The notes under the pieces: generated by a model
Seen by the model: only the letters and a program-made list of their open reading frames with translations
Told to the model about the DNA's origin: nothing
Database searches by the model: none
Translations under genes and position numbers: made by a program
In this document: positions 1 to 64,000 of the stretch, one piece after another
Position numbering within the stretch: position 1 is the first letter of the stretch
How the letters are laid out: each line of letters begins with the position of its first letter
NCBI GenBank assembly: GCA_016196195.1
Contig: JACPYF010000010.1
Coordinates: 4,110-68,109, forward strand
Length of the DNA: 64,000 nt
Source: Candidatus Saccharimonadota bacterium
GTDB lineage: Bacteria > Patescibacteriota > Saccharimonadia > Saccharimonadales > Saccharimonadaceae
Direction of reading: 5' to 3'

Positions 1-276
1 CCGTTTGGTGACGACGCAGCTGTGTACAAGATTGGCCACAAAGAGGACGGTGGGGGCAAGATGTTTGCAATTGTTGGTGAAAAATCCGATCCGCTACGCG
101 TTAGCCTAAAATGCGACCCGCAACTGGCGATTACACTACGCGAAAAATACGAAAGCATCGTGCCCGGCTATCATTTGAACAAAAAACACTGGAATACCGT
201 CATATGTACGGGGCAGTTGAATAGGGACGAAATTTTCGATCTAGTGAGACTGAGCTACGATCTAGTTAAAGCTTGA
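1..276 (+). CDS. MmcQ/YjbR-family protein, C-terminal part (gene starts upstream of window)
   Basis: The frame is open from base 1 (PFGDDAAVYKIGHK...). GGKMFAIVGEK...LREKY...GYHLNKKHWNTV is the typical YjbR/MmcQ pattern. Stop at 274-276. Confidence 0.6.
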   Translation, partial: PFGDDAAVYKIGHKEDGGGKMFAIVGEKSDPLRVSLKCDPQLAITLREKYESIVPGYHLNKKHWNTVICTGQLNRDEIFDLVRLSYDLVKA

Positions 277-838
277 GTTCCTCTAACTGTTGCTTGGCTT
301 TTCGCAAATGATCATCGAGCTCTTGTAGGGTTGCCTTTAGTTTCTGGTCCTTGCTGAGACCATATGTTTCGGCGATCAGTGCGCGTATTGATTTGATCTT
401 TTTTATTAGAACATCTGTGTAAACTGCGTCTAATTTGTTTTCTAGGTAGGCTTCCTCTATGGTTTTTGCGGTGGATGTGTCTGTCTCTGCTGCAGCTATC
501 GAGCTATCGAGTTTCGCCGGTACCTGCCCAGCTAGGGCTGCGTTGAGGTCCTGAATATCAGTTGTTACACTGAGGTTCAAACTTGTAACAATATTGTTAA
601 GGTCCTGGTTCTTTAAATTTCTAGTAGTTTTTTTGTCAGACAATAGCGCCTGCAGACCACCGTACCTGGCCACTAAATGTTGGGCCTGAACGCTAATTCC
701 TTTTTGGCTACCAGATAACAAGACAATTCCAATTATTATGGCTAATATTAATCCGCCAGCTATGAATAAAGTTTTTCTCGAAAATCTAAAACCGGAATTT
801 TGCGGTTCGGATTGTACGTAGCCGTAATTAGGATCCAT
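266..838 (-). CDS. hypothetical membrane-anchored protein (one N-terminal TM helix, helical ectodomain)
   Basis: 190-aa ORF with a hydrophobic segment LFIAGGLILAIIIGIVLL. No family motif recognised. It fills the gap between flanking genes. Confidence 0.5.
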   Translation of the reverse strand: MDPNYGYVQSEPQNSGFRFSRKTLFIAGGLILAIIIGIVLLSGSQKGISVQAQHLVARYGGLQALLSDKKTTRNLKNQDLNNIVTSLNLSVTTDIQDLNAALAGQVPAKLDSSIAAAETDTSTAKTIEEAYLENKLDAVYTDVLIKKIKSIRALIAETYGLSKDQKLKATLQELDDHLRKAKQQLEELKL

Positions 839-3673: not shown

Positions 3674-6190
3674 ATGAAGAGACTTGTTGTTATCGACGGA
3701 AAGTCCGTGTTTTATCGTGGTTACTATGCAATGCCGAACCTCAGCATGCGCGACGGCACGCCAACTGGTGGCGTGTACGGATTTGCGGCACTTAGCCTCG
3801 AGGTTATTAAAAGTCTCAAGCCAGATTACGTAGCTGTCGCTTGGGACAAGCCCAAAACTAACATTAGACGACGCAAAGAAATCTATCCGGACTACAAGGC
3901 TGGTCGTAAGCCGGCGCCACCGGATTTTTATGCGCAAGTTCCTATTTTGCACGAGTTACTAGAGGCTTTTGGTTGGCCGCTTTATGAATTTGACGACTAC
4001 GAAGCCGACGATATCATGGGCGCGTTGTCCGAGGACGCCAATAAAAAGGGCGTAGAGACTGTTCTAATTACTTCTGACCTAGATATGCTTCAGCTAATTG
4101 ACGATGACACGCATGTATATGCTCTCAAAAAAGGCTTTTCGCAGATCGAACAGTTCAATTTAAAATCTTTTGAAGAAAAATATGGGCTAAAACAACATCA
4201 ATTTCTAGATCTTAAAGCTTTGCAGGGTGATAGCAGCGATAATATTCCTGGCGTGCCTGGTGTCGGCGCCAAAACAGCGACAACTTTGCTACAAAAATAC
4301 GAAACACTAGACGGAATTTATGAGCATATCGATGAAATAACTGGTGGCGTTCATGACAAGTTAGTTGCTGGCAAAAACAGCGCCTACATGAGCAAGGAGA
4401 TAGCTCGTATCTGGACAGACGCACCGATAAAATTTGACCCTAGCACTACGGACATAGACAAATTAGACCGCGAAAAGCTACGCGAAATGCTAGAAAAGCT
4501 AGAATTTCGCAGCTTACTAAAGAATCTGCCCGAGGGAATGCAGGGCGAGCAGCGCGAAAATACCAGCCTAAAGCCTGCAAAAATAGAGCCTCTAGACGAC
4601 CAAGGCAGAACAAGTATCATTATGGCCCAGCATGTGGCTATTACACCTATCGAGGACAAGCTAATATTGTCACCAGATGCCGAAAATGGATACATTGTAT
4701 GCGTGCAGGAGGCCCCAAGCCTGCTGAAAAAATCTAAGATAATCGCTTATGATAGCAAATCTATACTGAAAACATTACTAAGCGAGAGTAGCGAACTGCC
4801 GCAGGTCCATCACGATATCCGACAGGCCAGCTTTTTGCTAGATGCATCACGCGCCGTTCTGAGCCTAGATGATTTGGCGATGGTGGATCTTGTAGAGGAT
4901 GACGGCAGCAAGGCCGTAGCAGCGATTTGGTCTATATTTGATCAACAAGTTGAGGCTTTCAAGGAATTTCCTGGCGTTCAGAAGGTGGCTCATGAGATTG
5001 ATTTTCCTCTAGTAGAGGTATTAGCTCGTATGGAGTACAAGGGTATAAAAATAGAACCAAAAATCTTTGACGTTATGAGTAAAGACCTAACAAAACAACT
5101 TGCTAGTATAGAAAAAGAGGCTTTCGCAGCGGTTGGATATGAATTTAATATGGCTAGTCCGTCGCAATTAGCCGATGTTTTGTACGAAAAGCTGCAGTTG
5201 CCAACGACTAACGTCAAAAAAGGTAAAACAGGTTACTCGACTGGTGCAAAAGAGCTAGAAAAACTACGCGGTCAGCATCCGATCATTGAGCTGATTGAAA
5301 AACACCGCGAACTCAGCAAACTAAAGAACACCTATGTTGATACTTTGCCGAAAATGGTCGATGGAAACAACCGTTTGCACACAAATTTTCGCCAAGATGT
5401 AGCAGCGACAGGGCGTCTTTCGAGCATCGATCCGAACTTGCAGAATATTCCAGTACGCACTGAACTTGGCCGTAAAATTCGCCAAGGTTTTGTTCCGGAC
5501 AAGGGCTTTGTGTTTGTCAGCGCCGACTATTCGCAGTTTGAACTACGCCTAGCCGCTGTTTTGAGTGGCGATCAGTCGATGATCGATGCCTTTAACAACG
5601 ACGATGATATTCATGTCTTGACTGCAGCTGCAATAGCAGGCGTAGAGCCTGACAAAGTGACAAAGGAGATGCGTTATAGGGCGAAAGCAGTTAACTTTGG
5701 CATATTGTACGGACAAGGGTCTCATGGCTTAGCCGTCGGTACGGGTATGACATTTGGCGAGGCCAAGGACTTTATCGAAAAGTATTTCGAACTTCGACCA
5801 AAACTTAAAGCTTATATGGATAGTTTACGAGAAAAAGCCCATAGCGAAGGCTATGTCGAAACGCTGTTAGGTCGACGTCGACCAACGCCAGATGTAAAAT
5901 CATCTAACTTTATAGTTCGTCAGGCGGCCGAGCGTGCTGCTACAAATATGCCTATGCAAGGAACAGCGGCAGATCTAACTAAAATGGCCATGCTGATGGT
6001 TGAGGAAAAACTCGGCGATACGGGCGTGCAGCTACTACAGATACACGACAGCATATTGGTTGAGGCTCGTGAAAAAGACGCCGAAAAGGTAGGTAAAATG
6101 CTAAAAGAAACTATGGAAAATGTTTATCCAAAATTAGGCGTGAAACTAAAGGTTGACGTCAGCACTGGTAGAGATTGGGGTCAGGTGTGA
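3674..6190 (+). CDS. polA: DNA polymerase I
   Basis: 5'-nuclease N-terminus (VVIDGKSVFYRGYYA), polymerase motif A (VSADYSQFELRLAA), motif B (RYRAKAVNFGILYG), motif C (QIHDSILVE). ATG 3674 is preferred over the longer ORF start at 3650. Confidence 0.95.
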   Translation: MKRLVVIDGKSVFYRGYYAMPNLSMRDGTPTGGVYGFAALSLEVIKSLKPDYVAVAWDKPKTNIRRRKEIYPDYKAGRKPAPPDFYAQVPILHELLEAFGWPLYEFDDYEADDIMGALSEDANKKGVETVLITSDLDMLQLIDDDTHVYALKKGFSQIEQFNLKSFEEKYGLKQHQFLDLKALQGDSSDNIPGVPGVGAKTATTLLQKYETLDGIYEHIDEITGGVHDKLVAGKNSAYMSKEIARIWTDAPIKFDPSTTDIDKLDREKLREMLEKLEFRSLLKNLPEGMQGEQRENTSLKPAKIEPLDDQGRTSIIMAQHVAITPIEDKLILSPDAENGYIVCVQEAPSLLKKSKIIAYDSKSILKTLLSESSELPQVHHDIRQASFLLDASRAVLSLDDLAMVDLVEDDGSKAVAAIWSIFDQQVEAFKEFPGVQKVAHEIDFPLVEVLARMEYKGIKIEPKIFDVMSKDLTKQLASIEKEAFAAVGYEFNMASPSQLADVLYEKLQLPTTNVKKGKTGYSTGAKELEKLRGQHPIIELIEKHRELSKLKNTYVDTLPKMVDGNNRLHTNFRQDVAATGRLSSIDPNLQNIPVRTELGRKIRQGFVPDKGFVFVSADYSQFELRLAAVLSGDQSMIDAFNNDDDIHVLTAAAIAGVEPDKVTKEMRYRAKAVNFGILYGQGSHGLAVGTGMTFGEAKDFIEKYFELRPKLKAYMDSLREKAHSEGYVETLLGRRRPTPDVKSSNFIVRQAAERAATNMPMQGTAADLTKMAMLMVEEKLGDTGVQLLQIHDSILVEAREKDAEKVGKMLKETMENVYPKLGVKLKVDVSTGRDWGQV

Positions 6191-60735: not shown

Positions 60736-60925
60736 TTAAACCAGCCCCTAGCAAAGGTGCATAGATTTTTCTTAACAGGATATTTATAGGGAGTTCAATA
60801 TTATATTACTTCGTGGAGTAATGATGAGAACACCCACCTTGCATAAAAGCGAGGAAATGTCGTGCACCGCAGTCCGGGGGTTAAATATTGATGAACTAAC
60901 ACAGGAAAACTAAAAGAATTTATTT

Positions 60926-61798
60926 ATGAGACAAAAAATTTCAGTCCGAGCAATGGTAAAACAAGATGGCAAAATATTACTGGCTCGACGTGCGACAGGT
61001 AGATCATCAATATTAGGTAAATACGAGCTTCCGGGTGGAAGCGTAGAATTCAGGGAGCAGCCCAACGAAGCTTTGGCGCGCTATTTAAACAATCATTTTT
61101 CAGTCGGCATAGAGACTTCACAGCTTTTCGATGTTGTTAGCTTTATAGATCCCGATGATACTGATATTCAGTATGTGTTCGTTGTTTACCTAGTTAGCTT
61201 AAAAGCGGGCGAGAGCAGTATAAAACTTAGTCCACGCTACAATAAATACACTTGGCAAAAGTTGTCAAACGTACAACTCAATGAACTTACAAATTCAACT
61301 CAAATTTTGCTAGGACTAGATGATGATGAACAGCCTACTCTGTTTCATGACGTTGAACATGTTCAATCTGATGTTGAAACAACATCGAATGATTCATTAA
61401 TTTTGTATTCAGATGGTGGATCGCGCGGTAACCCCGGTCCGAGTGCGGCTGCTTTTGTAGTCATGAATAGTCGCGAGCAAGTAATTGCAGATGGTGGCTC
61501 GTACTTAGGTGTAACCACAAACAATCAGGCAGAATATCAGGCCGTGTACTTTGGGTTAAAGAAAGCCAGTGAGATGGGCGCTCAGGTAGTGGACTTTCGA
61601 CTAGACAGCAACCTAGTAGTCAATCAGTTAAACGGTGTCTACAAGATTAAAAATCGAGATCTTTGGCCTATATATGAACAAATAAAACTACTGGTGCCAA
61701 AGTTCAGAAAAGTCACATTTTCACATGTTCGTAGAGAGTTTAACCAGTTAGCAGATGGTCTGGTAAACAAGATTCTAGACGAGCAGGCTGGAAAATAA
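60926..61798 (+). CDS. fusion protein: degenerate Nudix domain plus RNase HI domain
   Basis: Nudix-like GGSVEFREQPNEALARYLNNH (the REUXEE glutamates are lost). RNase H DEDD residues are present in YSDGGSRGNPG, NNQAEYQA, LDSNLVVNQ, NQLADGL. Confidence 0.75.
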   Translation: MRQKISVRAMVKQDGKILLARRATGRSSILGKYELPGGSVEFREQPNEALARYLNNHFSVGIETSQLFDVVSFIDPDDTDIQYVFVVYLVSLKAGESSIKLSPRYNKYTWQKLSNVQLNELTNSTQILLGLDDDEQPTLFHDVEHVQSDVETTSNDSLILYSDGGSRGNPGPSAAAFVVMNSREQVIADGGSYLGVTTNNQAEYQAVYFGLKKASEMGAQVVDFRLDSNLVVNQLNGVYKIKNRDLWPIYEQIKLLVPKFRKVTFSHVRREFNQLADGLVNKILDEQAGK

Positions 61799-61810
61799 GG
61801 TATACTAATA

Positions 61811-61932
61811 GAGGTAGATCATTGGGCAATCGCTTGCTAACGCGAGAGGAAAGTCCGGGCAGCATAGGGCACGACAGTTGCTAACGGCAACCGGGGGCGA
61901 CCCTAGGGAAAGTGCCACAGAAACCAAAAGGT
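61811..61932 (+). ncRNA. rnpB: RNase P RNA (bacterial type A) 5' fragment only
   Basis: GAGGAAAGTCCGGGC (61846-61860, CR-I/P4 5' strand), CATAGGGCA, and AGTGCCACAGAAA (61911-61923, CR-II) align closely with E. coli M1 RNA. No P12-P18 or CR-V (ACAGAACCCGGCTTA) follows. Confidence 0.75.
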
Positions 61933-62234
61933 TCGTTAGCTGCAAGTTCGCTTAGGATCTTGCGATCTAGTTCGATATTCTTTTTCTTTAAAGCATTTAT
62001 CAATTGACCGTAGGTTGTGCCGTTTTCACGAGCAGCGGCGTTGATACGGGTTATCCATAGGCCGCGTAGGTCTCGTTTTCGGTTACGTCGGTCGCGGTAT
62101 GCGTACTGAAGTGAACGAATAACAGCTTGCTTGGCAAGGCGGAAGCTTCTAGTTCGGTTATGCTGCATGCCTTTTGCGCGCTTTAGCATTTTCTTGTGTT
62201 TTGCGCGTGTGGTTACGCCTCGTTTTACTCTCAT
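61881..62234 (-). CDS. rplT: 50S ribosomal protein L20 (C-terminal approximately 12 aa encoded antisense to the rnpB fragment)
   Basis: [22 protein letters not shown]...[26 protein letters not shown]. The tail [12 protein letters not shown] is unlike L20 ends. Confidence 0.9.
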
Positions 62235-62238
62235 ATCT

Positions 62239-62433
62239 CTATGCTCCTATGACTCTCTTGATATTCTTGCGGATTGATCCTGTGATTTCAGCGCTTGATC
62301 CGATACGTCGCTTGCGACTAGCACTCTTTTTAGCGAGCATATGTCCACCAAAGGCGCGACGACGCAAAAGCTTGCCAGTGCCGGTCTTTTTGATCCGCTT
62401 GGCAGTTCCTTTATGAGTTTTCATCTTTGGCAT
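62239..62433 (-). CDS. rpmI: 50S ribosomal protein L35
   Basis: [33 protein letters not shown]. Confidence 0.93.
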
Positions 62434-62434
62434 T

Positions 62435-62941
62435 CTATTTACTCCTTACAGTAATACTTAGGTTTCTACCAGCCATACTAGGCTGTTGTTCGGTCACGAT
62501 TTCGTCACCAAGAATTTCTTGTACCTTCTTGATCATTACAAAACCTAGGTCTTTGTGGGCCATTTCTCGTCCTTTAAAGACGACGGTTAGCCTGACCTTA
62601 TGACCTTCTTCTAGAAACTTGCGCACTTTTCGGAGTTTGATATCAAGATCGTTTGCGCCAATTTTTAGGCCAATTCGGATCTGTTTCATCTCGCTTGGCT
62701 TGCTTTTGGCGCGAGCTTTTTGCAGCTCTTTCGTCTTTTGGTACTGATACTTGCCCCAGTCTATGACCTTGGCAACCGGGGGATTGGCAGCTGGTGATAT
62801 CTCAACCAAGTCCAACCCAGCGTCTTCAGCGGCTTTTAGAGCTTCCTGACGAGACAAAATACCTATTTGTTCGCCGCTCTCTCCTATAACCCGTAACTCT
62901 GAGGCGCGAATGGCCTCGTTGATACGTACCGATTTATTGAT
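62435..62941 (-). CDS. infC: translation initiation factor IF-3, non-AUG (ATC) start
   Basis: The frame is open up to a TGA at 62948-62950. The upstream codons read (I)NKSVRINEAIRASELRVIGESGEQIGILSRQEAL, the conserved IF-3 N-domain. AGGAG lies 9 nt before ATC 62941. Confidence 0.85.
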   Translation of the reverse strand: MNKSVRINEAIRASELRVIGESGEQIGILSRQEALKAAEDAGLDLVEISPAANPPVAKVIDWGKYQYQKTKELQKARAKSKPSEMKQIRIGLKIGANDLDIKLRKVRKFLEEGHKVRLTVVFKGREMAHKDLGFVMIKKVQEILGDEIVTEQQPSMAGRNLSITVRSK

Positions 62942-63025
62942 CTTGAATCACTCCTATTAACGTTTATTATTAGTTCCTATGCAGGCATTTTAACAGATTA
63001 ACTATTGGGGTGCAAGGGGTTGTTG

Positions 63026-64000
63026 TTAGATTGTCGGATTGGCCGCCCTGTATTGCAAGGCTTCAGAAATATGCCTTGTTGTTATGTCTTTGGAATTCTC
63101 TAGGTCGGCGATTGTGCGAGCTACCTTGATGACTTTAAAGTATGACCTGGTTGTTAGGCTCAATCTTTGTGAGGCTTGGGCCAGTAAATTACGCACATCT
63201 TCACTGAGGTCTAGTTGTTTTTTAATCTGTTGGCTGCTAAGCGAGGCATTGCTAATTGTTGTGTCGCCATATCTTTTTTGCTGTATATTTCTAGCATCTT
63301 CAATCTGTTGGCGAAAGCCATCTGCAATGTTTGTATTTGATTTTTTTAATAGCTCATCGTGCGGAACGCGTCCTACATGAACAACTAAATCTATGCGATC
63401 TAACAAGGGTCCAGAGACTTTCTTTTGGTACTGCAATATCTGAGTTGTGCTGCAGTTGCATTCGCGCAGATCATCGCCGTAATAACCGCACGGACAGGGG
63501 TTTTGGGTGGCAACAAGCATAAAGTTAGCCGGAAAACTGACCTTGCTACTAGCGCGAGAAACATGTATCTCGCGATCTTCCAGGGGTTGTCGCATTACTT
63601 CTAGGCTAGCGCGGGGGTATTCAGGTAGCTCATCGAGAAATAGCACACCGAGATGCGCCAAACTAACTTCGCCAGGCACGGGATTGCGCCCACCACCTAT
63701 CAGTGAAATATGACTTGCAGTATGATGTGGCGAACGAAAAGGTCGAGACAACAAAGCGTCTGCAGCCATCTCCCCGGATATACTATGCAGTTTAGTTACT
63801 TGTATCTGCTCCGACAGCGAAAGGGGCGGCAGGAGGTCGACAAGAGCTCTAGCGAGCATTGTTTTGCCTGTGCCGGGTGGTCCGGTGAATAGAATATTAT
63901 GATGACCTGCGGCCGCGATAGTCAGTGCGCGCTTTGCGATGGGCTGACCGTATATATCATCTATAGTCAATTTGGATTTCTTTGCGTTAGATTTTATCTT
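63026..64000 (-). CDS. comM: Mg-chelatase-like ATPase ComM/YifB, C-terminal part (gene continues past window end)
   Basis: Walker A GPPGTGKTM, VLFLDELPEY, CPCGYYGD...CNC zinc-like motif, LSGPLLDRIDL. The frame is still open at 64000. Confidence 0.88.
   Translation of the reverse strand, partial: KIKSNAKKSKLTIDDIYGQPIAKRALTIAAAGHHNILFTGPPGTGKTMLARALVDLLPPLSLSEQIQVTKLHSISGEMAADALLSRPFRSPHHTASHISLIGGGRNPVPGEVSLAHLGVLFLDELPEYPRASLEVMRQPLEDREIHVSRASSKVSFPANFMLVATQNPCPCGYYGDDLRECNCSTTQILQYQKKVSGPLLDRIDLVVHVGRVPHDELLKKSNTNIADGFRQQIEDARNIQQKRYGDTTISNASLSSQQIKKQLDLSEDVRNLLAQASQRLSLTTRSYFKVIKVARTIADLENSKDITTRHISEALQYRAANPTI

Follow-up and report, generated by a model that had tools for sequence, protein, structure and literature searches.

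The window, by which we mean the whole stretch of 64,000 nucleotides that was analysed (contig C31:4110-68109, from a 587-kb assembly of 41 contigs that is 84% complete), contains the stump of an ordinary class-A rnpB at the place typical of the genus, directly adjoining an rplT that lacks its native end. We consider it highly likely that this truncation is an artefact and that the main genome of the organism has an intact locus. The organism very probably possesses a normal RNase P ribozyme and a normal L20 protein of 113 aa. We would class the finding as a local misassembly within a metagenome-assembled genome of low coverage.

Results

Layout of the locus

The features of the locus are collected in Table 1. 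The listing of open reading frames over 61300-64000 shows a short non-coding stretch between the Nudix-RNase H gene and the rplT ORF, and it is here that the rnpB fragment lies. The hexamer TATACT, which may serve as the -10 element of the rnpB promoter, is also found in five of the seven aligned congeners, while TATAAT stands in two aligned congeners and in the closest strain, L035.

Table 1. Features around the rnpB-rplT junction (positions in the window)
Feature	Position	Strand	Basis
Nudix-RNase H fusion gene, 290 aa	60926..61798	+	ORF list; Pfam RVT_3, RNase_H, NUDIX
TATACT, -10-like hexamer, putative promoter of rnpB	61801..61806	+	7 nt upstream of rnpB 5' end; sequence likeness
rnpB 5' fragment, 115 nt	61814..61928	+	RF00010 match; collinear with complete congener rnpB
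Blunt junction, 297-355 nt of all related loci absent	61928..61929		blastn breakpoints, MAFFT alignment, Logan contigs
Aberrant L20 tail, 15 codons and stop, antisense of rnpB fragment	61881..61928	-	ORF; cluster comparison
rplT native part, codons 1-102	61929..62234	-	PF00453; zero-difference Logan contigs of X1, X2, X3
rpmI (L35)	62239..62433	-	PF01632
infC (IF-3), listed from TTG	62435..62857	-	IF3_N and IF3_C matches

Three further observations concern the neighbouring genes. The Nudix-RNase H fusion keeps its position directly upstream of rnpB across the genus and in L035, whose copy lies at 3734-4579 (- strand) and encodes 281 aa. L035 also carries a tmRNA gene (RF00023, 100 bits) at 234-634 (- strand), beyond a comM/Mg-chelatase-like gene; this stretch is collinear with about 68715-69115 of C31, just past the end of the window, so that the tmRNA gene appears to be assembled intact on the contig. 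Finally, the IF3_N match in infC (62435-62950, - strand) begins at profile position 23 of 70, and the true start probably lies upstream of the listed TTG.

The rnpB fragment is confined to the 5' third of the gene

A permissive cmscan of 61500-62400 matched RF00010 (bacterial RNase P class A) at 61822-62015 on the + strand with 59.1 bits (E 2.3e-17), a score that falls below the curated gathering threshold of 100 bits, and a scan of the whole window with Rfam at gathering thresholds returned four tRNAs only and no RNase P RNA. The good part of the match is confined to model positions 1 to about 125, the remainder consisting of gaps and low-probability filler laid over antisense rplT. Alignment with relatives delimits the true fragment to 61814-61928, which corresponds to about 35% of the gene in the closest strains (331 nt). 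The original prediction had held that only the 5' third of the RNA is present, that it overlaps the 3' end of rplT and that everything past about 61930 is antisense rplT; all of this is borne out, the antisense sequence beginning at 61929.

According to the structure line of cmscan, the fragment holds the 5' strands of P1 and P2, the P3 hairpin, the 5' strands of P5 and P7, the complete P8 and P9 hairpins, and the 5' strands of P10 and P11, with the helices named as in the type-A structure. The CR-I / P4 5' strand GAGGAAAGUCCGGGC is exact at 61846-61860, and the fragment ends at the start of J11/12, including ACAGAAA. The specificity domain (P7-P14) is incomplete in the window, being reduced to P8, P9 and the 5' strands of P7, P10 and P11; the earlier statement that none of its helices is visible nevertheless went too far. 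A second statement, that the CR-V strand ACAGAACCCGGCTTA is absent from the window, was correct, as the lone match, with three mismatches, is at chance level. The CR-V / P4 3' strand ACAGAACCCGGCUUA, which is needed to close the catalytic P4 helix, is present in all aligned relatives and absent from both the window and the assembly, and the P15 loop for binding the 3' CCA end of tRNA is not in the window copy. Because it scores below the gathering threshold and lacks the P4 3' strand, the window copy is, as judged from its sequence, not a functional class-A member of RF00010. On its own, the fragment folds no better than shuffled sequence (z -0.89).

The whole-assembly scan with RF00010 that the original prediction had proposed was carried out and returned only the 59.1-bit stump from the 587 kb. 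Likewise, when the segments of the relatives that are missing here were compared with all 41 contigs by blastn, only chance matches of at most 39 nt were obtained.

The L20 tail is the antisense of rnpB

The L20 ORF of the window (61881-62234, - strand) encodes 117 aa and reads into the antisense of the rnpB fragment. With 140.9 bits, its match to PF00453 is above the cut-off and spans the whole domain, from profile position 1 to 104 of 107 (residues 2-105). In a comparison at 90% identity, all 14 other listed members of the cluster are 113 aa long and end in EPxVF(T/S/K/A)(E/D)V.K..K; in the window protein, EP is followed by 15 unrelated residues that replace the native tail and correspond to rnpB positions 61884-61928 translated in antisense. 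The suspicion that this C-terminus is abnormal was therefore justified, since it resembles none of the 14. An exact look-up of the fused 117-aa protein found no other record in the public assemblies searched. The close relatives of this L20 go under the name Candidatus Saccharibacteria in their sources.

Related genomes carry about 300 nt more at the junction

A complete RF00010 match, at 177-264 bits and thus above the gathering score, is present in 36 of 40 related genomes. Seven of the eight congeners carry a complete rnpB, and the stump (59 bits) is found only in the genome of the window. Nine related loci have one and the same gene order, in which the Nudix-RNase H gene and rnpB are followed by the convergent rplT-rpmI-infC genes.

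When 60900-62900 was compared by blastn with the rnpB loci of relatives, the alignment fell into two parts, the left one ending at 61924-61928 and the right one starting at 61929 or 61930, and this identical breakpoint holds for each same-genus locus and for the closest strains. Between the two parts, the relatives have 297-355 nt of extra sequence. From the MAFFT alignment and the sequence of L035, the missing piece comprises rnpB from P12 to its 3' end, with CGACAGAACCCGGCTTA; a hairpin, AAAAAACCTCC...GGAGGTTTTTT, that lies between an A-run and a T-run; and the 11 final codons of rplT together with its stop. By its sequence, the hairpin would be a two-way terminator; the terminator scan left the corresponding A6-CCTCC...GGAGG-T6 hairpin of L035 unflagged.

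The closest strains, L035 (a Logan assembly) and L036 (an ENA assembly), are 88-94% identical to the window, and both have a complete 331-nt type-A rnpB (248-250 bits). In these two strains the missing piece amounts to 297 nt, of which 216 nt belong to rnpB, 45 nt to a spacer and 36 nt to rplT. Between L035 and C31, the junction is the only break of collinearity across 6.3 kb.

The gene itself shows some variation in helix length within the genus. The rnpB of L022, L023, L024 and L025 has an extra insertion of ~50 nt in the specificity domain, between J12/13 and the P13 region, which is absent from L026, L018, L014 and L035.

Contigs from the source samples run past the junction

We compared the locus with independent contigs from sequencing runs. 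The runs richest in sequence of 60900-62900 are X1, X2 and X3, groundwater samples of one study that contain 0.70-0.81 of the sampled words; X4, a bioreactor run of a different study, contains 0.39. The comparison data are Logan contigs rather than raw reads, and such contigs drop rare variants. The depth of the organism is about 3-6x per sample (about 5x), and contigs match both flanks with zero differences.

On the left, one contig of X1 covers 61502-61911 exactly, so the rnpB stump is truly contiguous with its left flank. On the right, contigs of X1, X2 and X3 match the native part of rplT, from 61929 onward, with zero differences, and they pass 61929 without stopping and continue leftward. 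The X3 contig has 255 further letters beyond 61929, ending in GACTACGTCTGTGAACACAGC just before 61929, and the reverse complement of this end encodes the native tail AVFTDVVKAT. A contig of X4 also has the native rplT end, with the two base differences of a close strain. In X1, a 902-nt contig is exact over 61929-62416 and then carries 316 letters followed by the 5' part of rnpB, and a similar contig of X2 bridges the right flank to the 5' part of rnpB. The contigs thus show the right flank running into the native end of rplT and then into RNase P RNA sequence. The exact native L20 protein of the bridging contig is not among the 15 listed cluster members.

The direct join of 61928 to 61929 occurs in no Logan contig of X1-X3. 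Since all records of X2 and X3 were listed, and the two unlisted records of X1 have loose ends at 61880 and 61923, there is no direct-join contig in the three runs. As Logan contigs hide minor variants, they establish the presence of the intact form but not the absence of the deleted one. A 46-mer taken from the right flank had no exact match in JGI metagenome contigs or GTDB genomes.

The bridging contigs do not amount to a verified one-piece full-length rnpB of the exact strain. Within 61844-61928, the bridging contig of X1 differs from the window at 11 positions and by a 2-nt insertion, its insert measures 316 nt against only 297 nt in the closest strains, and the depth table of X1 gives only one organism with these flanks at >=90% identity. 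For these reasons, the leftmost part of the contig probably stems from the rnpB of another organism, crossed into within a shared k-mer.

Foreign sequences also align at this place. The summed depth across 61838-61971 is 7-25x, and foreign rnpB contigs with 5-11 differences align from 61844-61846 to 61928 and then turn into unrelated, P12-like sequence. As they all diverge right after 61928, this position is the end of a stretch shared by co-occurring organisms.

Two observations on the communities may be added. In X1-X4, the rnpB contigs of other organisms have a depth of 12-14 and 5-8 differences over 83 nt, from CR-I to J11/12, indicating that the samples contain multiple related bacteria with near-identical RNase P cores. 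The X4 strain is very close over 61929-62705, with 1-7 differences per contig; as it comes from a bioreactor of another study, the lineage also occurs outside the groundwater site.

The junction is blunt

The C that follows ...AAA in the related loci is absent from the window, as is the C that precedes AGGTTCG in the source-sample contigs and in most relatives. Microhomology at the break is limited to a displaced CACAG, which the junction does not use. At base 61925, the window and the foreign contigs have C, eight of the nine related loci have G, and the ninth has A; we regard this base as a weak hint toward an artefactual origin.

Discussion

In the locus as we reconstruct it, rnpB on the + strand and the infC-rpmI-rplT operon on the - strand would converge on a shared two-way terminator. 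About 300 nt between 61928 and 61929 would have been lost during assembly or scaffolding, so that a 115-nt rnpB stump now runs straight into a shortened rplT. The left break lies exactly where the co-occurring rnpB sequences cease being identical: here the conserved J11/12 stretch ends and the variable P12 follows. Such a point of divergence forms a branch of the assembly graph and a natural contig end. The organism has a depth of only about 5x per sample there, against 12-25x for the pooled conserved stretch. A blunt junction that shares no bases speaks against both replication slippage and a collapse of k-mers; abutted contig ends or a chimeric molecule would account for it. A k-mer graph alone could presumably not make a blunt join, which would need either a chimeric library molecule or a later abutment of contigs. 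We infer that either two contig ends were placed directly against each other or the assembly followed a chimeric read.

A chimeric assembly join had been among the explanations offered in the original prediction. This explanation is supported, in the form of a local collapse of about 300 nt and not of a joining of unrelated DNA; both flanks belong to the same conserved locus. The prediction had also considered that a full-length rnpB elsewhere would make the fragment a harmless relic. No such copy was found elsewhere, and the full-length gene lies at the same place in the sample DNA.

Another possibility would be that the deletion is real in a minority of cells or molecules, defective and probably non-viable, and that the assembler followed that variant. 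A de Bruijn assembler does need some reads with the blunt junction, unless the contigs were abutted later, and rare variants can escape contigs. However, the junction is found in no Logan contig of X1-X3, and the right-flank contigs cross 61929 unbroken, which suggests that there is no well-supported branch at this point. The deletion would moreover remove the essential core of the ribozyme (CR-IV/CR-V and the P4 3' strand) and damage rplT, both of which the relatives keep. We therefore regard this explanation as unlikely. That the groundwater population of this Saccharibacteria-like organism includes a real ~300-nt deletion variant with no working RNase P RNA, and that the assembler took up this variant, is highly improbable in our view; if it were true, the cells carrying the variant would need another way of processing the 5' ends of tRNAs.

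A deletion that is real and fixed, so that RNase P RNA was lost and the organism depends on its host or on a protein-only enzyme, is extremely unlikely. A protein-only RNase P would be the known route by which bacteria dispense with rnpB (reviewed in PMC10941002), and the 587-kb assembly does contain no other piece of rnpB, no rnpA and neither a HARP (PF08745) nor a PRORP (PF16953). Nothing follows from the absence of rnpA, since the congeners' dnaA-rnpA-yidC-jag region is unassembled here in its entirety: their rnpA loci (dnaA, rnpA, yidC and jag ORFs) found nothing in the assembly by blastn or tblastn. Against a fixed loss, the source samples contain the intact form, which continues into sequence that matches the right flank exactly; Logan contigs from these samples carry extra sequence at 61928/61929. 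The search for a protein-only enzyme that had been suggested gave no candidate, with no match to PF08745 (PIN_5) or PF16953 at E<=1 in the 84%-complete genome. Furthermore, all eight congeners have rnpA and seven of the eight have a full rnpB. We found no paper on the loss of RNase P in Saccharibacteria.

A split rnpB, the last of the explanations first proposed, whose 5' third would work with a separately encoded 3' part, has nothing in its favour beyond the truncation itself and is scarcely conceivable, given that neither the covariance model nor blastn finds a 3' part in the assembly, that the break also takes the end of rplT and the terminator, losses that a functional split does not call for, and that the fragment folds like its shuffles.

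Taken at face value, the record would suggest that a reduced, host-dependent bacterium has lost its essential RNase P ribozyme and acquired an odd L20, and claims of such loss do get made for bacteria of the candidate phyla. Since the sample DNA has the intact gene at this locus, the record should not be counted as a case of rnpB loss, nor should it serve in comparisons of L20 C-termini. On a more general level, low-coverage metagenome assemblies are vulnerable at conserved RNA genes that are common to co-occurring relatives.

Compared with known systems, the HARP of Aquifex aeolicus and PRORP have no counterpart domain (PF08745, PF16953) in this genome. The class-A RNase P RNA of L035, L036 and the seven congeners, on the other hand, occupies the same position among the same neighbours as the window copy. 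Over the 5' 115 nt, the window and these relatives are nearly identical, from the -10-like box through P1-P3, CR-I, P5 and the 5' side of P7-P11 to the start of J11/12, whereas the window copy lacks the 3' 216 nt of the L035/L036 gene, that is, P12 onward, P15-P18, CR-IV/CR-V and the 3' strands of P4, P2 and P1. As to the join, it differs from the collapses of metagenome-assembled genomes at conserved RNA genes in having neither an N run nor a repeat at its ends, but it shares with them the low depth of the target beside a pooled stretch, the break at a point of divergence and a join that independent contigs do not support.
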